A DNA stretch of 64,000 nt from NCBI GenBank assembly GCA_965178125.1, contig OZ237759.1, forward strand, positions 310,001-374,000. Direction: 5' to 3'. Made by a program: the position numbers and the translations under genes. The notes below the pieces were generated by a model. That model saw nothing but the letters and a program-made list of their open reading frames with translations, was not told the origin of the DNA and ran no database searches. Shown one piece after another: positions 1-34,096 of the stretch (position 1 is the stretch's first letter; every line of letters starts with the position of its first letter). Source of the DNA: Bilabrum cf. latius. Its lineage: Eukaryota.

Positions 1-1
1 A

Positions 2-1030
2 AAACTTAATAACGTTGCCGCCAGCCTTGTTCGTTCTGGTCTTGACGACTTAAGAGTTGCATTAGAAGGAGGAACTGTAAATATGCGTCTACACACTAAG
101 AACGCTGCACTCCAAGTTCCTCTCAGCACCAATTACGCCTACCCATGGGAAAAAACAATTCCTCATGAATTTGTGGGTAATACTGCTTTACTTGCTAATA
201 GCGAAACCGTTGTCAACATTCCCATCATCAGAGAAGACGTTGTTCCCGATATGTTTGTTCCTCATGTTGTGGTCAATCGTGGTGCTGATGATTATGGTCC
301 TGATATAACTCTACCTATTACTCACATAAGTTGCACCGTCGGCAATAAATTCAAACTTCTTGATGATCACAGCACTCGCGATCTTTACGATTTAGCCGTT
401 TCAAATGGTTACGTTGGTAGTTATGCCTAGTTTGCTGGTTTACTACTCAACCCCGCTGAAAGTACCCTTGCCAATTAGGTACTCGCCAATTGGAGCATCT
501 TACCTTTACGCCCCAGTTAGATGCCACTAGATGCCGAATTAATGAGTGGTGTCAAGAAAGAGTTTAGACTCACCAGCCTACAACTCACCATTGCCAACCG
601 CACAGCCAATGCAATCGCAGCCGGCGATTACACCATCCAAATCCCTTTCATGTATGGCGGATACATTGAATTTAAAAATGGACGCATTCAAGCCAAAGAG
701 GTTGTTATTCCAGTAGCCAAAACACTCACCAGCGCTCCTGTGGTCTATCTTGAGGATGACAGCGAACATGCTATTCAAGGCGGACGCGGTGGACGCGGTT
801 GGAAGAAATTCAAGAACTTCGTCAAGAAAGCTACACCATTTGTCCAAAAAGCCAGCAAATTTGTACGCAACCTACCAGGTGTAAACAAGGTCGCTGGTGA
901 TAGTACCGCTCTAGGACAGGTTATGGCTCTTGCGGGGGCTGGAACAACTCACGTTGGCGGTGGGGTTTAGATGGTTGGAGGTCAAGTGATGAGTTCAAGC
1001 TAGGCAGATGCAATGGGAGGTTCTTACTAA
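2..1030 (+). CDS. Virophage major capsid protein, 5'-truncated by the window
   Basis: One frame open from position 2 to TAA 1028-1030 with only TAG interruptions. Sputnik-like MCP motifs LPITHISCTVGNKFKLL, DLYDLAVSNGYVGSYA(Q)FAG, and a Gly-rich C-terminal tail after AIQGG. Confidence 0.85.
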
Positions 1031-2886: not shown

Positions 2887-4020
2887 TCAATTACTACAAT
2901 ACAACATGACCTCATTTGGAAACACCCTCTTGTTTGCCATGGCTTCTCGCTTTGGTAGTCGTGCATGTTGTACCTTTTGAAAGAAAGTCTTTAATCTCTC
3001 TATTCGCCTCAATAACTCATCTAAATCTGGAGCATAGTTAACATGATAGGCTACTACCATCTTTTTCAATCCAGTAAAATCACATTGATCCAAGATCGGC
3101 AATTCTGCTCCCTCTATATCCATCTTAACACAATCACAACCCTCGATTGCTTTTTTAAAACTAATGGCTGGCACAATCACCCGTTTTCTTCCTCGCACCT
3201 TTCTTAAGGTGGTATGATTCCACTCTGATTTTGCTAGATACAAAGGGATTTCTCGGGTCTCACTATCCGCCACCACCGCTTGGTTAAAACAATTATCGGG
3301 GGTTACAGAATTCTAAACCAATATATTATAATTACCCTCATCTGGTTCATAACTCTTGATTGCTATTCCATGCATCTAACATCTGGCTGTAAATGCACCA
3401 ATATTTGCTCCGATATCACACCACTTCTCCCCTTTCTCCTACTTGAAAAACTGTGTATATTCCATCTTTTTTCCTAACAATTCCTTAATCACCTTGCTAT
3501 CAGTAGTTTGCGGTCTCTGTACCAAATGATGATGATGATTATAAAAAACCAAACTGTATCTAGTTCCTGTGAACGGTGCTGTCCAATGCTCCTAACTGTG
3601 ACCATAAAAGTAAAACGGTTTCCGATTAATATCGATTTGCTATTGAGTTCCATCCTAGTTTTTTACCACTAACTCTCCTCCTTTGTAATTTCCAAAAGCC
3701 ACAATCATGGTTATACCTTTGTTTAGGCTATCTGTATGAGGGGCACACAAAAAGTTTTTGTTGACGGTTATATTGCTGAAACGCAAATTAGGATCAATCT
3801 AGCGCCCCAACTTCACCAGCATTTGATGAATCTCGGGATTCTTAACCATAACAGTACTTGGTTGCCAAGATTTATCTTTAGAAAACATTTTCTAGACCAA
3901 TCCAAAGTTACAAGTTGGTATACTTTTCTTTCCACCTGAAATCTTACGTCTTGTTTTTCCAACTGAAAAGGTAGGAAACTTCCACTGTTCTAAAGCATTA
4001 AATACGCTATCGTAATTCAT
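2887..4020 (-). CDS. 2OG-Fe(II) dioxygenase (TET/JBP-like) fused to FkbM-family methyltransferase, 377 aa
   Basis: Single frame from ATG 4020 to TGA 2887 with TAG readthrough. N-terminal part: NITVNKNFLCAPHTDSLNKG, FGNYKGGELVV, EHWTAPFTGTRYSLVFY (HxD..H..R). C-terminal part: WCDIGANIGAF, SYEPD, VKMDIEGAE. Confidence 0.8.
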
Positions 4021-5349: not shown

Positions 5350-5979
5350 ATGGAGATAAATACTTCCGTAGTAGCCACAGGATTAGTTTCTTTAGGCTAT
5401 CATGCCGTTTGGTATCTTTATAAATATGTATTTGAACGCCCTCTTGATCAACGTAAAAAGCTAGTGCTCTTAATTCCCAGCAAATGTGGTAAGAGTTAGC
5501 TATGCAAGACGCTTCAATCACGCAACAAGAATCTTAGATTAGTTGATCTTGATGAATGTGTCAAAGCATCAGTATTTGGCAACGCTACCGAACAATTAAA
5601 ATTAGCTTGGGGTGAACAACACCAAGATAAAGGGGTAAGTGCCGATATCCGGCGTAAGTTTGTGCTTCAAGCAATTGAAGATGTAAAACGTGAATGGTTG
5701 ATCAACAAGGATCGTAAGGCGATATTCGTAACTAGTGATGTAGATGTAGCCCTCGAACGCTTTAAGCGAACAAGTGTCTGTGTTGCCATTCCAAGCAAAC
5801 GCTATTCTGAACAAATCAGAAAACAACTCAGTGATTCTGATAAACAAGTATTCGATCACTCCAGAGAGCAATTTCGCCAGTTTGAGTTTGGTGGTGATGA
5901 ATACGTAACTTTCGACAGCATTGGACAACTAGCCTCCGAGGTTATGGTTACCTATCGATCACTCAAACACGCTGTCTAA
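5350..5979 (+). CDS. Hypothetical protein with N-terminal hydrophobic segment and degenerate P-loop, 209 aa
   Basis: ATG 5350, one TAG. LVLLIPSKCGKS(Q)L followed by LVDLDE resembles a nucleotide-kinase P-loop. Confidence 0.6.
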
Positions 5980-6023: not shown

Positions 6024-6398
6024 ATGTATCAAAATGATATAGTAATAATAAAGAAAAGTCCCATTGCTGGTTATGGAGTATTTGCTAAACATAGCATCCC
6101 TAAAGGCACACCTATTGCTTATTTCTTTGGAATTGAAATGAGCACTGCTGATATTCGACTCAAATATGGCAACTTTAGATGCTGTTTGCGTAGACCATTC
6201 CGCAAATGGATCTGTTCCAGAGAACTACCACACATTATTAACTTTGTAAATGGAGTGGGCTTTGGTAAGAGTGCCGATATGCAACCTAATTGCGTAATCA
6301 AACAACGATGGCTATTGCCAACTCGGGATATTAAACAAGGCGAAGAACTGCTACTAAAATATCCAAAAGGGTACTTTAAAGACGTTGGATTGGAGTAA
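6024..6398 (+). CDS. Stand-alone SET-domain protein (vSET-like)
   Basis: IKKSPIAGYGVFAKHSIPKGT, INFVN, PNC and RDIKQGEELLLKY motifs. The canonical NH motif reads NG. Confidence 0.85.
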   Translation: MYQNDIVIIKKSPIAGYGVFAKHSIPKGTPIAYFFGIEMSTADIRLKYGNFRCCLRRPFRKWICSRELPHIINFVNGVGFGKSADMQPNCVIKQRWLLPTRDIKQGEELLLKYPKGYFKDVGLE

Positions 6399-7409
6399 TT
6401 AAAACAAGAAGCACTTGCTTTGAGTGACCGCGTATCTATTAATCTTATCTATATAGATCCATCGACTGGATTTAAACTAATCCTCTAAAAGATGAATCTG
6501 TTTTTTGCTTAAACTTAAGTATTTACATAGCATGAATTCGCGGTCTCTCTCGGGCGTCTATCTGTAAATAATATAACTCTAACACTCTCGATGCAACAAA
6601 CGGGTTTTCCGGTAATCACTGGGAGAGTGTGTTACCCATATTACACTCGCTCCGTGACTCCTTCCTTTAACTAATAGGTGTTCCGCAAGAAATAGTGCAC
6701 GATCGAAGAGTTCACCCTCAATATCATCAAACATCAACACACTTGGACGTTCTAGTAATTTGTGCAATCCCGGTGTGAAAGCATACTTTTGACCTGTTTT
6801 CATGGCAACTTTGAGCCTATCCAAGGCTTTCTCACCCTCAATCCTTTGTTCTGGATCCATGCCTTTCTTTGTATGTTTAAACTCAATTACTGCATCTCGA
6901 TATAATCTTGCTGAATCGTCTGGAACAACCAGTTCATGAATTGGGACTTCTATCATTCCTAATTCTTTGAATCGAGATTCCTAGGGTTTTCCGTTTACTA
7001 CTACAATCTACAAGTTTGGATTTAAGTTTCTCATTGTTTGCAATATCTCAATTCCAAGAGTAGTCTTGCCACTTCCAGCCATTCCAAAGTTGTAAATACA
7101 ACAACGAGGACTCTCTTTAGTCATCAAGGGAATGATCTTTCCACTCTAGTTTTTAAATTTGTAGATTTTAAAACCCCTATCTCGTAACTCCTCCCAGTGC
7201 TTTGGTTGATTCTTGACGATTCTAGCCTTGCGTTCGCCGATCTTGTACCTTAGGTAAGCCTAATCTACTGTTTCTTCTTCTGAGTCTTCAGAATCGCTGT
7301 CGCTTACGTTTTCATAAACTTTCGGCATGAAATAAATCACCTTTCCATCTCCGTAAAGTGAATATGCTATTGGATTACTGTTTTCCTATTTCATGGTACT
7401 TAAACTCAT
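6399..7409 (-). CDS. FtsK/HerA-family genome-packaging ATPase, 336 aa
   Basis: ATG 7409 to TAA 6399 with TAG readthrough. Walker A GMAGSGKTT, Walker B VLMFDDIE, and KGRSHGASVIWVTH motif. Confidence 0.9.
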
Positions 7410-9444: not shown

Positions 9445-9978
9445 TTACGGGTTCTATTTTACGAATTGTAGCACTCCATTTTTGTACCATGTTCTAGTTA
9501 TTTCGCTATTCTGAGTTTCAATAACAGCTGGTCCATTTTCTCTGTGTAATTGACCTTTTTTGTACCACTTTAATTTTGATCCGCCAAGATTAGATTCTAA
9601 ATATGCTGGTAGATCATTTTCTCTGTGTAATTCACCATCTTTATGCCACATCTCTACAAAATCTCCCTTAACTGATGGTAAATCATCAATTGAATGTAAT
9701 TTACCATTCACGGCTGTCATTCTATTTGTACCCGTTCCCTCCGGGCGGTTTGTTATAACCGTAACTAATTCAGGTCCATTCGTCTGTACAATAAAATCAG
9801 GTAACTCCTCCTAATAAGGTTGTTGCTGAGTTTGTCCTGGAATCTCATATCTACAAACTGGACATTTATTTCCACTCAAAGATTTATGGCACTCCTTACA
9901 AACCGTGCCGTCTTTACAACATCCAGTATGAACATACTTCCAATCATTTATATCCTTTAAACAAATACAACATTGCAT
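9445..9978 (-). CDS. RING-finger plus HRxxGPA-repeat protein, 177 aa
   Basis: ATG 9978. CCICL..HTGCC..VCKEC..KCPVCR followed by LHRENDLPA and LHRENGPA repeats. Ends at TAA 9445. Confidence 0.75.
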
Positions 9979-10038: not shown

Positions 10039-11244
10039 ATGAACAACATTACAGATAAATAGCGAGAAATACTGAACGATTTGTACTATAATAAAAAGAG
10101 TTTTCTTGGGCGCGATCGCTTTTGGAAACTTGCTTTGGATAACGGTGTAGATCTACCACGACGAACCGTCTACTCTTGGCTGAGTAATCAAGAGGTGTAT
10201 CAAATGCAAAAGCCAACACGCCAAGCCAAAAGCATCAAATCTACTCGATCCAAAGCACCATTCAACAAACTACAAATAGATTTAGTTGATATGAGTAGTA
10301 GCACAACTGCAAGAGGAGCAAATTGGTTACTAACTGCCATTGATGCCTATACCCGAAAAGCATACGCTTTGCCAATGCCCAATAAAAATGAAAAGACTGT
10401 TCTTGATAGTTTAGACCTATTGCTGGATGAATTACCCAAATTACCCAAATCCATCTAGAGCGATAACGGTTCAGAGTTTATCAACAAGAAATTTAAAGCC
10501 CGTTTAAAATCCTTGAAAATTAAACAGATCTTGAGTACTGCAGGAAAGCCTTAGACCAATGGACTCGTTGAAAGATTCAATGGCACACTCAAACGATTTA
10601 TTAAAAGCGATTTACTGAGCACAGGCGAAAATGATTGGGATGTTAACTTGCCATTATATCTCAAAGCATACAATTCCACTCCACAAACTACCACGGGTAA
10701 AGCACCTGATAAATTGGTTGAGGAATGGAAACAATCAAATATGAAAGAGGCTCCTGAAATCAAACAAGCATCCAAGCAAGATTTGGCAACCCAGCAATTC
10801 AAGATTGGCGATCAGGTACGAATTAAATTAGTCTAGAACCAAAACTAGAAACGTGCGGAAAATTGGTCCAAGGATTTATACCAGGTTGCCGAGGTGTTTA
10901 AGCCACGATAGCCTTGGAGTCCTTTCCAGTATCAAGTTAAGGATAGCCAGGGAGGCTTACTTAAAACCAAGTATGGCAACGAGGATTTGCAACAAATCAA
11001 TGCGGTGGAAAACAAGAGTAAATTAGCGGAGCGATTTGAACTTAGTAGCATTACACGTCCCAGTGTCCGAGATGGCGAATAGGGATACATTGTTAGATAC
11101 AAAGGATACTCTAAACCGGAATGGAATAGCCTGAAAAATTTGGAATTGGATGTACCAAAAATGGTACGGCTATTTGATCGCAAACACAATGTGGTTTGGA
11201 AAAAAGACAAGAAAGACAAATGGACATTCTCATGGAAAAAATAA
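10039..11244 (+). CDS. Retroviral-type (rve) DDE integrase with C-terminal SH3-like domain and chromodomain, 401 aa
   Basis: LQIDLVD, I(Q)SDNGSEF, KP(Q)TNGLVERFNGTLK, FKIGDQVRI, NWSKDLYQV, YIVRYKGYSKPEW. Confidence 0.93.
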
Positions 11245-11314
11245 CTGAATATCATTTATACATTAAATCATTTACATTAAAAATGATTTAAGGCTAATTT
11301 ACAAAGTTATATAT

Positions 11315-11629
11315 ATGGAATTAACTTTTGAAAACTTACTCAAAACACCAATTAATGAATGGGATAAGGAAAACATTGAGAATCGATTGAAAATACTTGG
11401 CGAACTTATTAATAGACATGGATACCATCCACGGTTTCGAGAGAGTCTGGAAGTTTTGTGCTACTTAATAGAAGTAAAATGTTATGGATGCAATGATATT
11501 AACTGTTATCATATTGATCTAAATCCTGGAAAAAAAGTCATAAACCCTGAATATCAGCAACTAAAGGAATTACTGGCGAAATTTTACAATCATAAATATA
11601 GTTGTCAACGTAAACTAGAAGATTTTTAA
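11315..11629 (+). CDS. Hypothetical protein, 104 aa
   Basis: ATG about 12 nt after the repeat; ends TAA; contains a CYGCNDINCYH cluster. Confidence 0.65.
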   Translation: MELTFENLLKTPINEWDKENIENRLKILGELINRHGYHPRFRESLEVLCYLIEVKCYGCNDINCYHIDLNPGKKVINPEYQQLKELLAKFYNHKYSCQRKLEDF

Positions 11630-11977
11630 ATCACCCCACACAAGAAACAATTAATCAAAGATTCTTTGTCCAATGGTTTAATTGATAACATCAAGAATGA
11701 TTGGGTAATGAATTTGAATGTATCATCATTCAAAAGAACAGGTGCTTAGCTGGGAATATCACCATGTTTACTTGCTGGAGGTGGTGGTAATTGCACATTT
11801 TTTATTACATCGCTCATGCGCAAACTAACACCCCTAGAATATCTAAGATTGCAGGGATTTCCTCCAGATTTTAAAATTTGCGTTAGTAGAGCACAGACAT
11901 ATAAACAGGTTGGAAATGCAATGTCGGTTAATGTGGTGTGTTTTATTCTAAAAAGCATGCTGATGGGATTGAAATGA
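11630..11977 (+). pseudogene. C-terminal fragment of a C5-cytosine DNA methyltransferase (TRD, motifs IX-X)
   Basis: ISPCLLA..MRKLTPLEYLRLQGFPPDF..TYKQVGNAMSVNVV. Motifs I-VIII are absent. In frame with the upstream ORF after its TAA; possible ATG at 11708. Confidence 0.8.
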
Positions 11978-21902: not shown

Positions 21903-22257
21903 ACGGAATAGAACAGTGAGTGATGGTAGGTGGGTATCCACTGGGCGTGTGTGGTAGTGGGATGTGCAGAGGACTGGCAGAGGTCTTGCATCACGCGCCG
22001 TGCACGTGCCTCCCCGCACCCAGCGTGAAACCCCCAGAGAAGTAAATTATATCCATTCGGGAAATCAGGGGAACCATGGGGAATCACGGGGAATCCACTG
22101 GAACATGGGAGAATCTGTTCGTGACCAGCAACACTCACTCCCGGACCATCTCCCTCCCGAATTATCACGTACAGAATAACCCAGTCAGAAATTTAGACTC
22201 TTGTACGTTTTATGGAAAGTAACCCTTTTAATTAAAAGTAAAATCCCCGATATTCTA

Positions 22258-22315
22258 CTCTCGCAGTCCATGTGAAACCCCCTGTATACAGGGGGTTTCA
22301 CATGGACTGCGAGAG
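22258..22315. repeat. Perfect 58-bp palindrome at the presumed right end of the element
   Basis: CTCTCGCAGTCCATGTGAAACCCCCTGTA|TACAGGGGGTTTCACATGGACTGCGAGAG, with no spacer and no mismatch. Confidence 0.97.
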
Positions 22316-23683: not shown

Positions 23684-26600
23684 TCACTGCCTCGCTTTCT
23701 TGGCGGCAGAGCCAGCGCCTGCACTAAACCTTCCTGCCGCATCATCGCGGCCGCTCGCGTCACGCCCACGCTTCTCCCCCGCTTTGGCACCGCTGGCCCC
23801 CGCACCCTGTGCCCCTTTCCCGGTCCCATCCAGACTGAACTGCAGCGCCCGCTCAAGCGCCTCCCTCGCGTCCCTCTGGGCCTCCTCCAGCGCCTCCGCC
23901 CTCGCTGCCCCGGGGACGTCGGACATGGCAGCTTCGATCCCCAGGGCGGTGGCACTGGCCACAGGAAGCGCGGCGCAGGACGCCGGCTCGCGGACAGCAG
24001 CCGCCTGAAGCCTCCCGAGCAGCTTCTCGGCGTGCTCCTCCCCCGCCAAAGAGGCGATCCTCTCGGGCGGCAGAAGCGCCAGCACGCCCGCGGCTGCACG
24101 CACGGGCGCGAGTCGGAGGCACCGGAGCAGCCCCCGCCATGCATCTTCGGACTCCCACACCGGTCGCATGGCCACGAGTCGGGCCACCGCCGCCACTACG
24201 GACCGAGCCGCGGTGCGGTGCTGCTTGTAGGCCTCGAGGGCCGCGCGCAGCACCAGGGCAGGGGGTGGCTGTGACCTGCTCGCGTGCCTGGCGGCGGCGC
24301 GGTCCTGGTCCTAGTCCAGCGAGCCGAGGCCCCATTTGCCTTGCACGGCAGTGGCTGCGACGTGCTCGAGCGCAGGGGCGAGCAGGGCGAGGGGCAGTGC
24401 TCGTGTGTCTCGGACCAGTGCCACCACGGCTTGGCTGGCTGCCTTGGCCGGCACCAGTTTGGGGCCGCTGGTGCAGTCGATGTCGCTGTCACCTGGGCTG
24501 GTCGGGTCTGCATCGCTCTGAAACAGCGGGAGGGACACAAGGTCGTTGAGCAGGAGCGGGCTTCTGTACGGGTGCGATGCTCCCTTTGTGTGGACCAGCC
24601 ACCGCAGTGCAGGCCTGATAAAGTCGTACGACCGCGCTTCCTCCTCCTCCGTCTCAACACCGCCGCCCGTGCTACCCTCCTCCAGGGAGCCAAGGGAGGC
24701 GGTGTCGTCGTCGGCGGGTGCGCCTGCTGCGGCCCGCAGTCCAGGCATCTCCCCTTCAGCATCACCCGACGGGGCTGCGTCTTCTGCATCGCCTCCCATC
24801 CCGCTCGCAGAAGTGGCGGCCTCGCTTGACCCGGTGCTGGAGCCGATGCCATCCTCTGCTGCGCCCGGCCCCGCGAGCGAGCTGCCCAGGGTGGCACCAC
24901 CTCGCAGCAGTCCAGCAGCGGATGCTGTTGCAGCGGATGCTGTTGCAGTGCCGGTTGGTCGTCCGTCCGCGCCGCTGATAGAATCCGCGGCTCCCGTCGA
25001 GCTGGCTGAGTCTACCATACCTGCCTGCCCACCGTCACCTTCCGCTGCCGCTCCATCCGACCCTACTGCGGACGTGGCCTCTTCCTCGGCGTCGTCATCT
25101 TCATTGCGCTTGCTCTCCGCTGCGGCCAGACCAGCGAGCCCCTCGCTCTGCTCGTGCTGGTGGGCTCTCCGCTCGTCCTCAATGCTGTCATACGACACCA
25201 GCCACGGCAAGAGCGCGCGCACTTGTTCCCTGGGCAAGGAGGCCAGGCACGGGATGAGGAGCTCTAGTCGCCCGCGCAGGGAGGAACGCACGTGGGCTCG
25301 TCGGCAGGCCCCAGCTACAGCAGCAGGTGACAGCTGCAGGTCGGCAGCCGCAGGCGCTGCTGCGGAATCAGCTCCGGGAGACCCGTCCTCGGCTTGCTTG
25401 TCAGTGTCCTCGTCCGCAGCGCCACCGCTCGACTCGTGGCTATTGCCGTCACTCTCGGGATCGGTGAGGAACAGCCGAACCAGCCGATCCACCACAACCT
25501 GGCTCAGCGGCTTGCGCTTGGTGTGCGCCCGGGTGGCAGCTTCCGAGGCAAAGAACACCAGGAACGGGAGAGCGTCTCTCCGGCGGGGGACGGGGGCACG
25601 CTGCGCGACCCAGTCGCTGCCTGGCCCGTGGTCAGATCCCGGGGAGCTGGCAGCCTCCATCGGGACGGCCTGGGCCTGCCCCGGGCCCGGTTTTGACCCC
25701 GTGTCATCACCGACCAGCATGGTCTTGGCATGCCCCGCGTCCTCAGTGATGGCACCAGCGGTTGAAGGCTGCCTCTCGCCCAGGGCCTCCATCACCACGG
25801 ACCCGGCCCCTTTCTTCGGTCGCAGCAGCATCTCCAGCAGCTGCACGCAGCACTGCTGCAGGCTACCGCACACCACGTCGGCGGTGCGCACCGAACGCTC
25901 CGCCACCGAAGCGGCTCTGGCCGCCATGCGAGCCACGCGCCTTGAGCGACGTACAGCCTCCTGCGCAGCCGGGCGGTCAAACACATCGCTCGCGGCATCC
26001 ACACCCTGACCCTGGTCGCCGTCGCCGTCGTTGTCGCCGTCGTTGTCGTTGTCCCAACCACCGCCCGCTCGCATGCTCTCCGGGTTGCGCCCCTCCTTGA
26101 GCGCCTGCTCGTCTTGTCGCAGCCTCTCAAGGTGGTGGTGCGCGCTTGCCTTGGCAGACGCAGCTGCCTCCGCGCATTCCCGCGCCCCTGCTTGGCACAG
26201 CTGGGAGGCACTGGCCAGCGCGCGGAGCACCTCCCTGGGCCGGATCGTGCCCAGGCCAACCGCCAAGAAGACCAGCCGGGGCACGAGTGCCGCTGCGCGA
26301 GAAGGTGTCAGGCCCAGAGGGTGCGGCAGCGGCTCCGTCAGCTCACCCGAGTCTCCCGGTCCGTCCTCCGCGTTCGAACGGAGCTCACTGGCCTCTGCGG
26401 CAAGGCATGCAGGCACTACATGAGCCGCTGCCACGGGGCCAGCAAGCACGAGAGCGTGCAAGAGTGCCCTGGGGGAGCTCGCGGAGGCTCCGGCGGAGTA
26501 TCCTAAGCTCTGCGCGGCTGACCTCACCGTGGAGTCGCATCGCTGCCCGGGAGACACGATACTAGCGAACGACCGGGACACGGACGATGCATCTGCGGGG

Positions 26601-29600
26601 TGCCCACGGGCAGTCTCGTCGTTGCTTGACCCGGTATTCACACCCAGCACCTCCAGCGCGGCTCGAGCTGACGCAGAGGCTAGCTCGGGCCCGCTCGCGA
26701 CGTGATCTCTGGCGCTGCCGCCGCTTTTACCCACCTCTGCTTCAGGCTCGAGCTGATCCGAGACTCTGCCCGCGAATTGAGCAGCGGAGCGGGCCTCCAT
26801 ACCGAGCGCTTCAATGGCCACCACAGTGCCGTGCAGCACGAAGCGAACCACCGGCAACAGTGGTGCGAGCCACGCCTGCATTCTCTTGGCCGTGCGAGTG
26901 ACCAGCAGTGTGGTAGCCTTGGTCCGCGTGTCCACCCCAGGCGCAAGTGCAAGGGACAGCACTGCCCGCAGGGCACAAAGCCTCTGTGCGGGTCCCGCCT
27001 CAAGCTGTTCCCTGAGGCCTTTCAAGACCGCTGTGACCGTGCTCTGGCTGTCACGTGGGATGGGCTGCTCCCCGTCCTGTTCCCCAGGGGCGTTCCGCCT
27101 TGCGATGTCGTTGAGCTTGCTGCCCTGCCGGTAGTCTGTCACTGGCCATGGGACGACCACGAGGTCGCTCGGGACGGGGAGATCCGCGACGTCGTCGAGC
27201 CGAGCTGGCCGCGGCCTGGACTCGTCTTCTTTCCCCATCGACTCGGGGACGGGGGGCTCGAGGGGGTCCTCGGCTCGTGCACGCGCCTTCACCCCCACCC
27301 GGTCCAGCGGCCTTATATCCAGGGCGCAGCACTGCAGGGCGGCCGAAACGGCGACGGGGCTGAGGGCATCCACTGCCTTCCACAGACCAACCAATGACTC
27401 GCGGATGCCTTTGCGCGCTAGGAGGCTCTAACTCAGCACGGCGGTCGGGTCGGGCACGCCCTCTCTGCCCCTGACCATGGCTGGGACAACAAAGGCGGGC
27501 TGCGCCAGCCGCACGGCCAGTGCCCCCCGCCCGATGGGATCTTCAACGATCCAGGCCACCGTGCGAGCCACCATCTCCCGGTATGCCATCATCGCCTCGT
27601 TGGACTGCCAGCCACCCTATTGAGCTGCACTACCCCCGGCAGCGTCCACTGCGCTTCCACCACCCGGGGACTCGCTGCCATGCAATGCCATCACAAGCTG
27701 CTACTCAAGCACCTCGAGTATGAAGGTGTCCCGCTGCCGCCGCCCCTCGGACCCGGCGACTGCCTCGTCCACGCGGGACCAGGCAAGCAGGCGAGCCAGC
27801 CTGTCTGGGGGCTGCATCCAGCTCGATGGCCCATCGGCCGGTCCGTCGCGTGTCTGACCACCCCCTCCCGGTGATGAGTCGAAGCTATGCGGCAGCCGGG
27901 GGATGAGAGTGACGGCTCCATCCTCGCGATTCTGAGCGCTGGGTGTAGATGCGATTCCCCGGTTGCCGTGAGCCTCTCGCACCTGCAGCAGGTCACCAGA
28001 GGCCCGGTCACCGTTGGGTCGGAGAGTTGCGGAATCCGATGACCAGACAGATCCTATGGATACCACAGCACCCTTTCGCTTGTCTCTAAAGCCTCCTAGA
28101 ATAGGCAGTTTCCGCAGCAAAGACACCAATGCTGCCGCTTTGCGGCTTTGCAAGAGTGCACTGGACTCGGCCTCGCTGCTACTGCCACTCGCGGTGTCAC
28201 CAGAGCCTGCCTGCAGGCGAGCAACCAGACCGGCATACCCGCTGCGGCTATTCGCATACTGTTCGATAAGCTGATCGAGCGATTCGGCACGAGATCCTTT
28301 TCGACGAGGCATGCCTGCCATGTTCTTAGCATGGCTCCCTTCTTCGAGCTCGTCCTTGTCCTCGTCCTCGTGCTCGTCGTCATCCTCATCCCGCTCTCCT
28401 CCGGCCTCATCGGGAGCGCCGTCCTCCTCCCCGTCCTCGTCCTCCAGCAACTCCCTGGTAAGCGCGGCCAAAGACTCGGGGGCTCCTGACCGTCCCGCAA
28501 GCAAGACATGCACCCTGCCGAGCCGGGCCACCAGCACCTGGGCCTGCATCTTGGCGGGCTCTCCGCCCACGATGGCTGCCAGATCCGGCAGTCCGATCGG
28601 CTCCCCTTCAAGCACAAGATCCATACCCTCGGACGGCATGGAGGCGCGCAGGGCATCGGGCACCTGCGCTGTTCTTACCACCGGCTGGCTCGAACCGCCT
28701 GCGCCTAGCAAGCTGCCGCCGCCGCTGTCATCACGCGTGGATGCATCAGATTCCAGCGTAGCAGGATCAGGGTGGAACTCCTCCACTGACACGTCCAGGT
28801 TGGCCATCAACAGGTCAAGGGCGTGCTCGGGATGCATGCTCAGAAGCCACGCCTAGTCGCTAAGGGCGCTGCGCAGTCCTGCTTGGTACTTTGCTGCCTC
28901 AAGGTCGGCTTGCTCCTTGGCTGCACGGTCGCGCTCTTGCTGCTCCTGCGTCAGCTAGGCATGTTCTGCCCGCGCGCGGGGGTCATCCATCGGTGAATTG
29001 GGCTCAGGACGCGCTCCGCCCATCACGTCCTGCGCTTGGGCCCATCTCGAATCGTCACCTCCGCCTCCACCTGGGCCGCCAGCGTACTGCCCGCTCTGGC
29101 CAAACGTGCCGGAGGGCGTGTACAGAGCAGATTGGTCCATGGGGACGCCAGATACCCCCTGCTCTGCAAAACCACCCGTAGGAACGCTAGATAACGGTGC
29201 AACTGGGGCTGCAGCTGATCCAACGGGGCCAGCCAAAGAAGCAGGCTGTGGCGGTACTTCGGCAAGAAGTGGGGCCTCTGGCACCAGCACCACCGGTGAA
29301 ACCATCCCGCCACCGTCCGGGTCCCTGTTCACACCTCCTGCTCCACCCGATGGCACCGCCCCCGTGCTCCACGCCTGAAGCCACTTGCTCCTGGCATCTA
29401 TCGCTTGCTGTGCCCTGGAAGCTGCGATGGGGCCGATCTTCCTCGCCTCTGCCACCAGCTCGGCAGCGAGCTCTCCATGCTCGTCGGCGCCCACTGACGC
29501 AGCCCCAGCCCCTTGGCGCGCATTCACCGTATGCCAGGCGCTCTTCCCGCCCTGGAGCGCATCCTCCATCTCCTTGGTCCATTGCTCCGCGCGGGGCTGC

Positions 29601-31222
29601 ACCAGGGGCAGCTGCTCGATGCACTGCACGATCAGCCGGGCGAGAGGCTCCTACAGAGGAGCCTTCACGGGGTGGCTCTTGGACACACCGTGAGGTACAG
29701 CCTCGCCGTGGCAAGCGCCTCCTGATGCCCTGCTGACGTCGCACGGAGGCGTCCTCGCGAACCGAAGGGTGCGCCGTGCGATGGCAGGTACCAGCGCGGG
29801 CCGCTCCGTGCAGATCGCCGATAGAAGCCGCATGGCCTCCTCATACACACTCGTCACGATACCTGTGGCCGCAGCGGCCGCTGTCGCCTCTTCTGGCGTT
29901 GATCGGTGTGCCATGGCGGCCTCGGCTGCCTTGGAGGCCGAATGAGGACCGATCAGCAGCCCCAGCATCCTCCCCAGGGCATCCTCTGCTTCGCGCTTGA
30001 GCGCGGCAGGCGACAGCGTGTGGGCGGGGTGTCCCGCCGGAGTGGTGGCCAGAGAGATGCCTGGGTGGATGGGCACGGCCGCCGCCGGCGGAACTCTCAG
30101 CGCCTCGTTGAGCGCCGCGTCAAACTGCCGCGCCGCCTCGCTGCCCGACGGGGTTGCAGAGGACCCACGGCTGGAGCTCGAGTCCGAACTCAAAGACGGT
30201 CGTGGCAGCGCGAGTTTACCTGCAGGCCCAGCCTTGGGTGCGCCAAGGGAGGCCTGCAGCCCTGCAAACGCGTCCTCCTCTTCCTCCTCCTCCTCGTCGC
30301 CGCCACCTATGGATTCCTCACCGGTGCCCTTCCCATTACCAGATGATGCAGCGGCTGGAAGAGCAGAAGACCGGAGATGGGACGCTATACGGTCTATTGT
30401 GCTCTCTCCATTGCCTCCCATCACGGTTCCGACGCCCCAAAGGCCCCATGCCTCCTCTTCCCGTCGCTCGCTATGGTCGCCTTGTTGGTTTGCATTGTCC
30501 CGTGTGCCGGCTTGGGCTGCTCGTGCGCGGAACCATTCCGCCCGCGTGGGTTCAGTGTGAGCAAGAACAAGGGAGCACGCGAATCGCATGACGGCTTTGC
30601 GTGCATCAGGGCTGCACCGCGGCATCGTGAGGAAGCTGAGCAACTGCCTGCGAGCATCCCACGCAGCTTGCGCCCCGCTCGCTATGCCTGGGGGCAGCGG
30701 CGGAATGAATTTGCAAGATATGCTACTATTGGGCGGCCCAGTCGCCTAAATATTGAACAATTCGCTCGTCATGGGATTCCGAAGGGCCAGCGCTAGCAAG
30801 TGCGGATAGCAAGTTGCGAGGGCAGCGCTGCACGCGGTGATGGCCTCAGGGTCCGCATCGAAGCAGGCGTTTTGCAGCGCACGAGCCAAGCTAGGAATCC
30901 AAAGCAAGAACTTTTTCACGCGCGCGAGGTGCATAACGAACAGAGCGACGTGCGTCCGGGTAGGAGTGGACCGGGCACTTGCAGCAAGTTCACAAAGCTG
31001 CCCCAACACCCCACGCACCTGCTGCATGCTTGGAATGCCTGATTGCGCCATGCTATGCTATTCAGAGACAACCGCACGAATAGACAGCGACAGGGCATGC
31101 ACCGTATCCTGTTCGTCGCCGACCTCTTGAGCTGATGATACCACGTCTTCTATTGAGACATGATCCCGACCTTCGCCCTGCTGCAGTTCACCAACCCATA
31201 GAGAAGGATCCATCGAGGACAT
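23684..31222 (-). CDS. SYMPK: Symplekin/Pta1-like 3'-end processing scaffold, ~2512 aa
   Basis: Seven track ORFs share one frame separated only by TAGs and end at TGA 23684. C-terminal PALVLRAALEAY..RLVAMRPVWESEDAWRGLLRC..VLALLPPE matches the Symplekin_C pattern. Confidence 0.75.
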
Positions 31223-31348
31223 TGAATGGTGTCCGCGCAACGACTCGATGAGTTTGCTGTAAGTTCACTGATTCGACGTTGCAACCGGTGCTCCGCCGGC
31301 CCGGATCCCGGGCAAAACCACGCCAACTTGAATCTACACCGCTTGGCG

Positions 31349-34096
31349 ATGAGTAGCATTTCCCGAGATGTAATTCTTGGACTTGCATTGTAGTTCGGGA
31401 TGGGTCCAATGGAAGGCGACGCAGTAGATTCGATAGCGACTGAGCTTGAGTACAGGCTGCGACGAGTGATCTCGGAGGCCGCCACTGTTGCTGGAATCGA
31501 GTACCGAAGTAGGATAGAATAGCGCGACATCGACTGTGCGATGCGAGAAATGGGTCTGACCGTGAGCAATATCGAGTTCATCCAGTCGCACAAGATACAT
31601 TCACTTGCGCCATCCACACACCTGTCTATCCTGCTAATTCTCTTGTTTCCGCAGCCAGTCTTAGGCAGTAGACGGTCTCATAGCATGGATTAGTCTCAAC
31701 CTGGCAGTTGCATCCACCAAGAATTGTCGTTGCATCCTCCACCAGGGGGACAAGGCTGTACGGATGGTGTGAGAGTATTTGGGAAGGCAAGCAGGATTGT
31801 TAACGTCGAGAAAGCCATCTTCGACGGCGAAGCGTGGGCGAAACGCCTCGCCGTTAGACTTCGCGGGCCTTCGGTCGCAGAGCTGTTCGACTGGAATCAG
31901 GACGACGATGATGCCGACGACGATGTGGAGGGAGCATCGGGCGAGGGCGGGGACGAGGCGGCCGAGCAAGCCGCCATCGCGAAGGACCTCGCTGAGTACG
32001 AGGAAGACACAGATGACAGGGCCGAAGGGAGTGCCAGTGGTGCGGCGCCCATGAGTGACGGCGGGGGTGCAGGTGACGACGGGGGGGAGGAAGAAGACGA
32101 GCGGGAAGAGGAGGAGGATGGAGAAGCGAGCGGCGGCAAGAAAGGGTCAGGCAATGGATCTGCCGCAGGGGCGGCGGGCTCATCGGCAGCAATGGACGGT
32201 GACAATGACGAGGACGAGGTCTCGCCCCGGATCCACACGCCGCCGCCAGTGCTCACTCCCTCGCACGAAGCGGCGTGGGCGGCGGTGCACGGCGTGCAGC
32301 CTGGCAGCACTCGTCTCACCGATGGTGTTGCATCGTAGCCAAGGAACACAGTGCAGCGCCTGCACGGATCCAGGAACCATGCATCATCTGCGGCTCGAGT
32401 GGTGCCTCCGTAGCATGGCATGCTCAGCGCCGAGCAGGCCACGCTGCTGGACACGATTGCAGCTGCCGTGCAGGCCCCCAGCTCACCGGCCGCAAGAGCA
32501 GTGGTAACGCTGTGCAGAACAGACGCGGGGCTGGGGTTATGCCTGGGACACATCGTCTAGATCGCTGCCAGTCAGGCGCGGGCCAGGGCCAGGCACCCCC
32601 CTTCCGTGCGCTGTTCCCTGGAGGTCCTGGGCGCGCTGGCGGAGAACCCGGCGGTGCGGCTGGCGCCTCACCTGGACCGTGTGCTCCCTGCGGTGCTGAC
32701 GGCCATCGTGCACGCGCAGGGGGCCGGGAACCCTTGGAGGGAACAGGGACACTGGGCCGTGCGGCGAGCGGCTGCCGTGCTGCTGGCTCGCCTGATAGAC
32801 TCTCACTCCGGCTCGCACCCCGGCCTGGGTCCCCGTGCATGCGCAGTGCTGTGCAGGGTGCTACCGGGGCCAGGGGCAGCACCAGTTGCAGGGAATGGGG
32901 CTGGTGGCGTGGAGAAAGGAGGAGAAAGGGGCAAGGCGGGCGGTTTGCAGGCCGGCATGGACGATGGGTCCGATGCAGGTGAGGACAAGGATACCAAGGA
33001 TAGAGAATAGTAGGGTTCCGGCCCAGCCTCTGTGCAGGATCAGCAGCTTGCGGCGCTGCCTCTGACCAGCGTGTATGGCGCCCTGTGCGCCTGCCACCGG
33101 ATGGGCAGGGAGGCCTGTAGGGAGGTCGTGCTGCCGAGGCTGCCCGGGCTCGAGAGGCTGCTGGAAGGAGCTCGAAGGCAAGCGGCGGCGGCCAGGGAAC
33201 AAGAAGGTAACGAGGGGAGTGCACCGAGGCTGTCGCAGCCACCGATGGGGGCGGTGAAGAGGTGCGAGCGGGCGCTGGTAGCAGCATGCAAAACAGCCAT
33301 GGCCGCGCTGCCGGCACCCACTCCACCGGTGGACGAGCTGGCTGTAGAGCTCCACGCAGCGACGCGAGCCTCGGCCCGGGATGCGCAAGCTTCTCTTCAG
33401 CTGGCCCACGGCGGCGGCGGCAGCGTCTTCGGTATGGGTATGCAGGCGCTACAGGTGCCTGTGGTGGGGCAGATTGGAGGCCCTGGTTAGGGAACAAACA
33501 AAAGTCCATCCTCAGGGGCCGCACTGGCTGCTGCAGCAGCAACGCCATCTGCCTCTGCACCTGCACCTGCACCTGCACCTGCACCCACAGGTGCCGATGC
33601 GAGTGCCACAGGAGCCATGGCACTAGCTGCTGCCCTTGTGGCTGGTGGGGGGGACAGTAGCCTCGGCATTGCCTCAGGCACTGCGGGCGGACCTGGAAGC
33701 AGCAGCAGCAGCAGCAGCAGCAGCAGTGGTGTCGGTGGTGTCCAAGCGCCCGCACGAGCAGCCTCCTCGGGGCCCGCCAGTGGTTCCCTGCCCGGTCTGG
33801 TCCCGCGGCTGGCAGCGGGACTCCCGGCCTCATCGTCATCGTATTCCCAGCCGCTGCAGGGCGCTGGGGCAGGGGTGCAGCCTGCTGCAAGCGCTGGGCT
33901 GCCCAGCGCCCCGTCGGTGCCACCAACCAGCGGGGGCAATCAAATCGAAGTGAACGCCGCTCCTGCATCTACCAGCGCGGCTGCGGGAAACTAGCCGCCG
34001 AGTGCTGGATCCGGATCAGGGGCTGTTTCTCGGCCGTCCCAGCCTGCAATGCAGCCTGCAGACGACTTCGAGGTTGTGGAGGACGAAATGCTCTGA
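31349..34096 (+). CDS. TAF6: TFIID subunit 6; exons 31349-31561 and 31655-34096
   Basis: Histone fold IATELEYRLRRVISEA..RDIDCAM; GT..AG intron 31562-31654; HEAT region ALAENPAVRLAPHLDRVLPAVLTAIV, HWAVRRAAA, PLTSVYGAL. Confidence 0.88.

Follow-up and report, generated by a model that had tools for sequence, protein, structure and literature searches.

A minimal TET/JBP-like oxygenase fused to an FkbM methyltransferase in an integrated virophage: a candidate writer of methyl-capped 5-hydroxymethyl pyrimidines in DNA

What would a virophage do with an iron- and 2-oxoglutarate-dependent oxygenase of the TET/JBP kind fused to a methyltransferase of the FkbM family, and on which substrate would the two domains act? 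The question is raised by a single gene (Table 1) in a 64,000-nucleotide stretch from Bilabrum cf. latius (assembly GCA_965178125.1, contig OZ237759.1, positions 310,001 to 374,000 of the forward strand; hereafter the window), the left part of which is an integrated virophage. Oxidation followed by O-methylation of a C5-methyl pyrimidine in DNA, summed over thymine and 5-methylcytosine (5mC) as the starting base, is the probable answer. It is on balance likely, though with less assurance, that this 377-amino-acid enzyme writes an undescribed base, 5-methoxymethyluracil or 5-methoxymethylcytosine, as part of a module of wide occurrence among virophages, giant viruses and marine phages (HTVC112P and MED4-184 among them), and that its oxygenase represents a minimal TET/JBP subfamily. 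The more specific proposal that thymine is converted through 5-hydroxymethyluracil (5hmU) to 5-methoxymethyluracil is preferred here, tentatively.

As proposed, one polypeptide would edit the virophage's own DNA after replication, acting on it twice. First, the Fe(II)/2-oxoglutarate domain would hydroxylate the 5-methyl group of thymine to give 5hmU, and the fused FkbM domain would transfer a methyl group from S-adenosylmethionine (SAM) onto the new hydroxyl to give 5-methoxymethyluracil, a route that would need no C5 cytosine methyltransferase (C5-MTase). With the methyl cap in place, the base would be closed to further oxidation and would probably be shielded from glycosylases and from the restriction nucleases of a helper giant virus. 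SMUG1 is reported to remove 5hmU in mammalian cells, and conversion to a methyl ether may put 5hmU out of reach of this and similar glycosylases.

The fusion is real, intact and recurrent. Under translation table 11 only a 129-amino-acid piece of it is listed (2887-3276), and glutamine is the correct reading of TAG at its two best-conserved positions, 194 and 215 (glutamine in 8/16 and 7/16 of the other rows, respectively). That frame was described in the first-pass annotation of this DNA as a 2-oxoglutarate-Fe(II) dioxygenase (HxD..H..RxS) fused to an FkbM domain, and the motifs (H95-x-D97, H145 and R154-x-S156) and Pfam agree. The AlphaFold2 model of the whole protein has a mean pLDDT of 96.0 and a pTM of 0.93, with a pLDDT of 95.6 for the model of the oxygenase domain, and in three sequencing runs, each from a different study, a single contig spans the gene, at 3, 4 and 72 letters of difference; one of the three may be what the window was drawn from. 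Eight homologues span at least 97% of the fusion at 38-66% identity. Both domains are present in 43 of 173 proteins, the query included (34 clusters at 50% identity); these 173 come from homologue searches with the fusion, the second of them contributing the best 150 of 3716 matches, and the set is biased because the query itself carries both domains. The oxygenase of the two-domain proteins is small in 37 and of a larger phage type in 6, and the order of the domains is reversed in four (P0012, P0042, P0138 and P0142); P0031, a candidate fifth, was dropped as a truncated protein. The fusion recurs in viruses with the standard code, P0007 being one homologue of this kind, and in both domain orders. 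Elsewhere, a group of triple fusions (P0064, L110 and L116) combines a small oxygenase, which looks circularly permuted, with FkbM and a TET-associated-glycosyltransferase-like domain, and in P0079 an FkbM domain of the same subfamily is fused to a radical SAM domain.

To which family the oxygenase domain belongs is best answered by profiles. The Pfam model Tet_JBP (PF12851) matches residues 79-162 with an E-value of 2.9e-6, its 27 bits lying under the cut-off of 34.9, and 2OG-FeII_Oxy_3 likewise stays below its own cut-off (19.8 bits against 27). Among 27 members of the family, Tet_JBP is matched by 18, 2OG-FeII_Oxy_3 by 4 and AlkB models by none. Tet_JBP is the top oxygenase family in those 18 even so, and the domain is filed as TET/JBP-like in a subfamily of its own. 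A search of the PDB with a single sequence gave nothing significant; with the family profile, the only significant match among PDB sequences was NgTET1 (E 4.7e-5). Further, hhalign joins the small oxygenase to two phage TET groups with probabilities of 98.9% and 98.0%, and in a tree of 85 oxygenase cores, built on few columns, the small oxygenases form their own branch with a support of 99.

The fold search also places NgTET1 first (Z 12.1, root-mean-square deviation 2.4, 140 aligned residues), tied with ALKBH3 (11.7), FTO (11.3) and PiuC (11.1), a tie that counts against the preferred proposal; the best prolyl hydroxylase scores Z 10.6 with a root-mean-square deviation of 3.2, and Foldseek ranks ALKBH2, CMD1 and CcTet together. 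Among viral models, the named top matches are TET/JBP proteins. When the whole protein is searched, methyltransferases dominate and no substrate class is singled out, NgTET1 being the only oxygenase in the top 50 that matches the N-terminal domain. Given that fold alone does not part TET from AlkB enzymes, a substrate other than DNA, namely RNA, a capsid protein or a glycan, gains some room, which the profile matches to NgTET1 and Tet_JBP then narrow. The first-pass annotation had called the domain TET/JBP-like; set against the AlkB and prolyl hydroxylase families, the profiles favor that call, and the domain does not group with prolyl hydroxylases.

The catalytic residues of the double-stranded beta-helix are nearly invariant, with H95, D97 and H145 in 27/27 rows and R154 in 26/27. 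V158 and Y160 align with V1900 and Y1902 of TET2 and with V293 and F295 of NgTET1, and the position of Y160 is aromatic in 25/27 oxygenase rows and in 17/17 rows of the fusion family. R24, a candidate equivalent of TET2 R1261 and NgTET1 R224 judged from sequence rows, is arginine in 23/27 and lysine in 4/27. The signature of the domain is HxDxxN with YxH rather than the HxDxxD / YxR of the tested thymine dioxygenases viewed (a signature noted here by eye on sequences of Dataset S11, and no definition of the source paper), and at 161 amino acids the domain is without the variable insert and the length of about 290 amino acids seen in the phage clades C1/C2. It would appear to be a minimal TET/JBP-like subfamily outside every tested clade.

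The second domain lies above the cut-offs of PF05050 (at residues 202-326) and TIGR01444, adopts the class I SAM fold and carries the DxGxNxG and KxDxEGxE motifs. The best FkbM structure in the fold search is 2py6 (Z 12.2), with which many other methyltransferases are level, and its subfamily corresponds to PHROG 28597, annotated as of "unknown function". O-methylation of a hydroxyl is known chemistry of the FkbM family. FkbM proteins are labelled O-methyltransferases in Dataset S10 of PMC13229309.

What the FkbM domain does may be sought in the company that its relatives keep. Three scans on the FkbM motif alone, each represented by its best 80 confirmed matches (of at least 281, at least 248 and 239), gave 212 loci, or 89 lineages at 70% FkbM identity, whose neighboring genes were recognized with profiles built from the same loci and verified in samples with Pfam. 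Within the first 80 loci, 70 have a related neighbor of 260-320 amino acids, and all 34 of these that were sent to Pfam matched Tet_JBP, 27 of them above the cut-off. A TET/JBP gene lies no more than 4 kb from FkbM in 52 of the 89 lineages, 26 of which also have ParB, often followed by terminase. A thymidylate-synthase gene or a gene of the hmU (5-hydroxymethyluracil)-kinase-helical type is near FkbM in 22, and neither type of DNA-base enzyme is found in 15, 12 of which are loci under 8 kb. Thus, in 74/89 lineages FkbM has, no farther than 4 kb away, either TET/JBP or a cluster of the thymidylate-synthase/hmU-kinase kind, and a tie between this FkbM subfamily and hydroxymethylation of DNA bases is supported. 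The common thread would be a 5-hydroxymethyl pyrimidine, produced by TET on DNA or by a hydroxymethylase in the nucleotide pool, and FkbM would consequently act downstream of the hydroxyl.

These neighborhoods also bear on a non-DNA substrate. The fusion is found 1.9 kb behind the capsid gene in the window and directly behind a capsid gene in the virophage L167 (whose capsid is only remotely similar to that of the window), FkbM-like domains otherwise serve in sugar and polyketide methylation, and in PacBio methylomes of two giant viruses with FkbM-domain genes, the FkbM being of whatever subfamily, no motif was assigned to that gene. The capsid glycan that the first-pass annotation offered as an alternative is nonetheless weak, because 74/89 lineages sit with DNA-base enzymes and most of the TET-linked ones lack a glycosyltransferase close by, and RNA, capsid protein and glycan taken together make an improbable class of substrate. 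Among loci with ParB and FkbM, no TET was detected in L158, L106 and L171, the last of which has an unannotated 433-amino-acid frame (10654-11952) in its place.

The phylogeny of FkbM, computed with IQ-TREE on 98 of 131 rows (those left out being 11 without a class and two thirds of the phage rows with HxDxxN/YxL), contains a branch with a support of 95 in which 13 small-oxygenase and 9 larger-oxygenase partners are mixed, so that the two oxygenase types look interchangeable as suppliers. The branch of the window's own FkbM holds small fusions only (24 rows, support 97). FastTree grouped it with the thymidylate-synthase branch, a placement that was not used, as IQ-TREE leaves an open fork there with a support of 93.

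Whether the hydroxyl itself is the acceptor is a further question. Beside the 52 TET lineages, 122 further open reading frames (ORFs) of at least 140 amino acids within 3 kb include one glycosyltransferase and neither an hmU kinase nor an amino acid transferase, and this near-absence makes the bare hydroxyl the simplest acceptor. FkbM might instead esterify a 5-carboxy base, iterative oxidation being described as possible for phage thymine dioxygenases, or might methylate a sugar or amino-acid adduct attached by an enzyme encoded elsewhere. An adduct would suit the domain makeup of P0064 and the amino acid:DNA transferases that, together with an hmU kinase, are encoded near FkbM at several thymidylate-synthase loci. 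Such chemistry on DNA is unlikely: no glycosyltransferase or P-loop kinase that could act as a tailoring neighbor gave a family match within that portion of the element which the window covers (its left part lies beyond), and, apart from the scarcity of these enzymes beside the TET lineages, FkbM co-occurs with hydroxymethylases of deoxyuridine monophosphate (dUMP), which stop at the alcohol. It speaks for thymine that asparagine occupies the dUMP-specifying position in 15/23 of the thymidylate-synthase ORFs beside FkbM and that the one that was searched best matches the dUMP hydroxymethyltransferases of MP1412-like Pseudomonas phages.

If a 5-methyl pyrimidine is oxidized and capped, thymine appears the somewhat likelier base, although the enzyme may take both. 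The complete cultured phages HTVC112P and MED4-184 encode ParB, TET and FkbM and give no C5-MTase match, and the fusion of L167 bears the HxDxxD / YxR signature with no C5-MTase in 15.5 kb; the FkbM branch that mixes small-oxygenase and larger-oxygenase partners also speaks for thymine. Across the FkbM lineages a C5-MTase occurs anywhere in the locus in 7/89, 5 of which have it no more than 2 kb away, and among the 53 lineages of at least 8 kb it occurs in 3, counts made with a profile from 17 seeds that distant C5-MTases may escape; that profile replaced a first sequence pattern, which missed its own positive control. Likewise, a C5-MTase is reported in only 6% of 5mYOX pathways (PMC13229309). 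The TET/JBP genes of both cultured phages are mis-annotated in GenBank, that of MED4-184 (L216:17126-17911) as a queuine tRNA-ribosyltransferase, a label shared by PHROG 6059, and that of HTVC112P (L215:7590-8504) as DnaJ/SNF2. Linkage to ParB alone is no proof of thymine activity, because the largest phage group beside FkbM has a signature, HxDxxN / YxL (81/98 ParB-linked sequences), that is absent from the tested thymine dioxygenases viewed in Dataset S11.

Several observations weigh against thymine. The window oxygenase differs in type from the tested thymine enzymes, standing on its own branch with asparagine where those enzymes have aspartate, and it is without the insert whose removal is reported to have abolished activity in phage thymine dioxygenases. 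N100 and H162 align with human TET2 N1387 and H1904, which read cytosine (PMC4678852 and PMC11804724 for NgTET1 and TET2). Four loci (L057, L146, L162 and L163) have beside FkbM a thymidylate synthase with aspartate, the residue of the deoxycytidine monophosphate type, and are candidates for a capped 5-hydroxymethylcytosine (5hmC) made before replication; because of them FkbM may cap either base, and neighborhoods cannot fix the base in the window. The loci themselves extend at most 10 kb to each side. Finally, C5-MTases adjoin the fusion in its closest relatives. L081 and L083, at 84% identity, have a bacterial-type C5-MTase directly downstream, the 3' part of which matches window positions 11622-11967 at 87%, and the gene extends upstream of 11622 on a contig of a sibling element in run X3; in a second virophage-like lineage (L093, L099 and L110) a different C5-MTase lies 0.2-1.2 kb upstream. 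In L083 an Eco57I-like adenine methyltransferase also adjoins the fusion.

Taken together, these points define a cytosine route in which a C5-MTase of the element would methylate its target sites to 5mC, which the oxygenase would convert to 5hmC and FkbM would then cap as 5-methoxymethylcytosine. Because a different C5-MTase adjoins the fusion in its closest relatives this route is a strong second, doubtful as it is when taken by itself. Its likelier partner is the bacterial-type enzyme, of which a remnant, overlooked at first pass, persists 7.6 kb from the fusion, and not the intact short C5-MTase at 19251-19997. That the element encodes the latter, as noted at first pass, is confirmed by a match to PHROG DNA methyltransferase (E 6e-12) and by motifs I, IV, VI and VIII, which agree with those of its 59 homologues. 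However, of the pathway then built on it, from cytosine through 5mC and 5hmC to a further methylated base, oxidation followed by methylation on DNA stands as likely, while the choice of cytosine and the link to this particular gene do not: it lies 15.2 kb from the fusion and looks dispensable, as in run X8 one contig skips 19206-20417, where the gene resides, and another carries the fusion. Contig depth also differs between the fusion and this methyltransferase region, a difference given no weight, since such depths are no measure of copy number. Further, the adjacent methyltransferase is truncated and moved in the window copy with the fusion intact, the position of H162 is histidine in only 2/17 fusion-family rows, and asparagine at the position of D234 is reported to have raised the thymine activity of NgTET1. 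Co-occurrence of methyltransferase and fusion is in any case weak evidence, because most Polinton-like viruses carry methyltransferases.

Restriction-site statistics are relevant to both bases. Relative to codon-preserving shuffles, 21 element genes have 0 GGCC where 30 are expected, and 25 AGCT against 60, 12 CCGG against 33 and 8 GCGC against 29; the 22.3-kb element as a whole has no GGCC site, compared with 311 in 40 kb of host flank. Avoidance of restriction sites would produce such a deficit of palindromes, which suits a lineage that has met nucleases. It does not name the modified base, although the depleted palindromes contain cytosine and to that extent favor the cytosine route. Deamination of 5mC is not indicated, as GACC/GGTC is not enriched (81 vs 75.5) and AGCC/GGCT is not depleted. 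Depletion of GAAG/CTTC is also seen in window positions 1-22300.

A different purpose for the same chemistry would be escape from silencing, whereby 5mC that the host had placed on the integrated copy would become a capped base unseen by host readers and maintenance methylases. The element is indeed integrated, its CpG content is 0.76 of expectation, and published accounts have proposed such a role for Tet-like genes in Polinton-like viruses and for the TET of a giant virus in Chlamydomonas. It is nevertheless a very improbable explanation, the same gene pair being standard in bacteriophages beside terminase, without eukaryotic silencing, and the cap being one that blocks the usual route of demethylation.

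The setting of the fusion is a virophage integrated into host DNA. The first 22.3 kb of the window form an AT-rich element (GC 0.32-0.48) to which GC-rich host DNA adjoins with GC-rich host genes alongside, and the features of the virophage class are present in a virophage-type major capsid protein and a packaging ATPase (Table 1). Neither penton nor maturation protease was matched among the element ORFs scanned with Pfam, the element being cut by the window start, and a search of IMG/VR found no close relative of the capsid gene. Within 21 element genes TAG supplies 80/356 glutamine codons, and 17 of these genes stop at TAA and 4 at TGA; in four long host-side frames TAG supplies 53/409, and the Symplekin-like and TAF6-like frames of the host likewise require TAG readthrough. 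Over window positions 1-22300 and 23684-52100, TAG therefore encodes glutamine in virophage and host alike with TAA kept as a stop, and the same reading of TAG is used by L081 and L083. Such decoupling of TAG from TAA is rare (PMC5304391).

Table 1. Positions of the features discussed, numbered from the first letter of the window.
Feature	Position	Strand	Basis or remark
Fusion gene, 377 amino acids, 8 in-frame TAG=Gln, TGA stop	2887..4020	-	Minimal TET/JBP-like oxygenase (assignment from profiles) + FkbM methyltransferase
Oxygenase domain, residues 1-162	3535..4020	-	H95, D97, H145 iron; R154/S156 2-oxoglutarate
Oxygenase base pocket, V158, Y160, N100, H162	within 3535..4020	-	Alignment to NgTET1
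FkbM-type SAM methyltransferase domain, residues about 165-377	2890..3528	-	Pfam + NCBIfam
Short C5 cytosine DNA methyltransferase, 248 amino acids, 3 TAG	19251..19997	-	Catalytic motifs present
3' remnant (motifs IX-X) of second, bacterial-type C5-MTase	11622..11977	+	Longer form downstream of fusion in L081, L083
Virophage major capsid protein, cut at window start	1..1030	+	Pfam MCP_V20_C E 5.9e-12, above cut-off
Packaging ATPase, A32-like	6399..7409	-	phmmer E 1e-8 to A32 gene of L148; PHROG terminase E 5e-5
rve integrase	10039..11244	+	Pfam rve E 1e-16
Replication protein, origin-binding-protein-like helicase	15734..18646	-	Profile matches
Tyrosine-recombinase-like ORF (presumed)	20023..21183	-	Motifs by eye; no family match
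Perfect 58-nt palindrome near right end of AT-rich element	22258..22315		
Host genes, Symplekin-like + TAF6-like, GC-rich, TAG=Gln	23684..34096		Integration + code evidence

The element has several further features. An rve integrase coexists in it with a gene that we take to be tyrosine-recombinase-like from motifs judged by eye, without a family match. An ORF of 216 amino acids (14649-15299, minus strand) shows by eye what is presumably an HNH-like His/Asn pattern, again without a family match, and one of 209 amino acids (5350-5979, plus strand) has a P-loop-like motif, no useful family match and is skipped in contigs of runs X1 and X3. Also encoded are an HMG-box protein (2530-2772), a SET-domain protein (6024-6398), two RING-finger proteins (9445-9978 and 13356-14036) and a tRNA-Met (13122-13192). 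An AT-rich palindromic motif recurs 5' of genes (11241-11314, 11994-12070, 12570-12646, 14039-14088, 14593-14669, 15308-15357, 18650-18700 and 21183-21233) and is likely a viral promoter or a gene-cassette boundary, and three copies of a non-coding repeat of 170-200 nucleotides, one inverted (15414-15586, 18716-18921 and 21705-21909), flank the helicase and recombinase genes. Joints in contigs of other runs indicate that sibling elements form a mosaic in which gene content varies.

The implications of this chemistry, should it be borne out, are several. An association that has been counted and left unexplained, that of FkbM with 6-7% of viral 5mYOX genes, would yield a single, sharp prediction. 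One small protein, needing only Fe(II), 2-oxoglutarate, O2 and SAM, would make a new DNA base, DNA hypermodification would extend to virophages, and an enzyme able to methylate 5hmU or 5hmC in DNA could be used to label those bases by means of SAM analogues. A link between FkbM and TET may already have been predicted by Iyer et al. 2013. The co-occurrence of FkbM with TET, and TET genes in viruses such as these, are already in print, and the tailoring product appears undescribed: among the papers listed by a literature search in which subscription journals were thinly covered, none dealt with what FkbM makes, with its pairing with virophages or with 5-methoxymethyl pyrimidines as natural constituents of DNA.

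Among known systems, the closest include the established phage hypermodification clusters of clades A/B, in which C5-methyltransferase, TET and glycosyltransferase are combined (Burke 2021, PMC8256090; Pyle, bioRxiv 10.1101/2023.12.21.572611). Shared with these, as predicted for the fusion, are the post-replicative oxidation of a 5-methylpyrimidine, the tailoring of the resulting hydroxyl and a C5-MTase in the same genome. Compared by description only, the clusters differ in that the tailoring enzyme of the virophage is a fused FkbM domain and not a glycosyltransferase, that its oxygenase has 161 amino acids and serves in a eukaryotic host, and that the C5-MTase next to the oxygenase, characteristic of clades A/B, is found in L081 and L083 and not in the window copy. 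Formation of 5hmC directed to GpC is a further mark of those clades. The phage thymine dioxygenases of clades C1/C2, shown in 2026 (O'Toole 2026, PMC13229309), share a homologous core with the window oxygenase, hhalign giving 98.9% to loci that bear the signature of those clades. The window oxygenase departs from them in having no variable insert, no ParB and a signature other than HxDxxD / YxR. In the account of the same source, FkbM O-methyltransferases were counted in 6-7% of 5mYOX contigs, apparently without being assayed. NgTET1 and TET2 provide the best solved match by profile and fold, with the iron triad, the 2-oxoglutarate arginine, the stacking aromatic residue and the base-edge positions all aligned; they are about 16% identical to the window oxygenase, have no fused methyltransferase and, as described in PMC4678852 and PMC11804724, oxidize repeatedly in demethylation.

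Comparisons with eukaryotic systems are equally instructive. TET-like genes have been reported in Polinton-like viruses, endogenous viruses and a punuivirus, often beside methyltransferases (bioRxiv 10.64898/2026.06.19.733378, 10.64898/2026.10.09.758095 and 10.64898/2026.10.13.758929), and the fusion resembles them as a TET-like gene in a small eukaryotic DNA virus. TET-coupled glycosyltransferases are mentioned in the last of these, and the term FkbM is absent from the main text of the first and the last. The first two read the viral Tet-like genes as demethylases, a reading that the fused, putative capping enzyme would challenge because it points to a stable, protective mark. Within the FkbM family, whose curated cut-offs and fold it shares, the subfamily of the fusion stands apart in its tie to DNA-base enzymes, and no close relative of it has been solved. 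Finally, eukaryotic thymine hydroxylation is itself familiar from the thymidine hydroxylases of dinoflagellates (PMC11572971), compared by description only, and from the base J pathway, in which JBP and the J-glucosyltransferase hydroxylate thymine and cap the hydroxyl. The virophage enzyme would follow the same order of events, with the difference that its predicted cap is a methyl group and not glucose.

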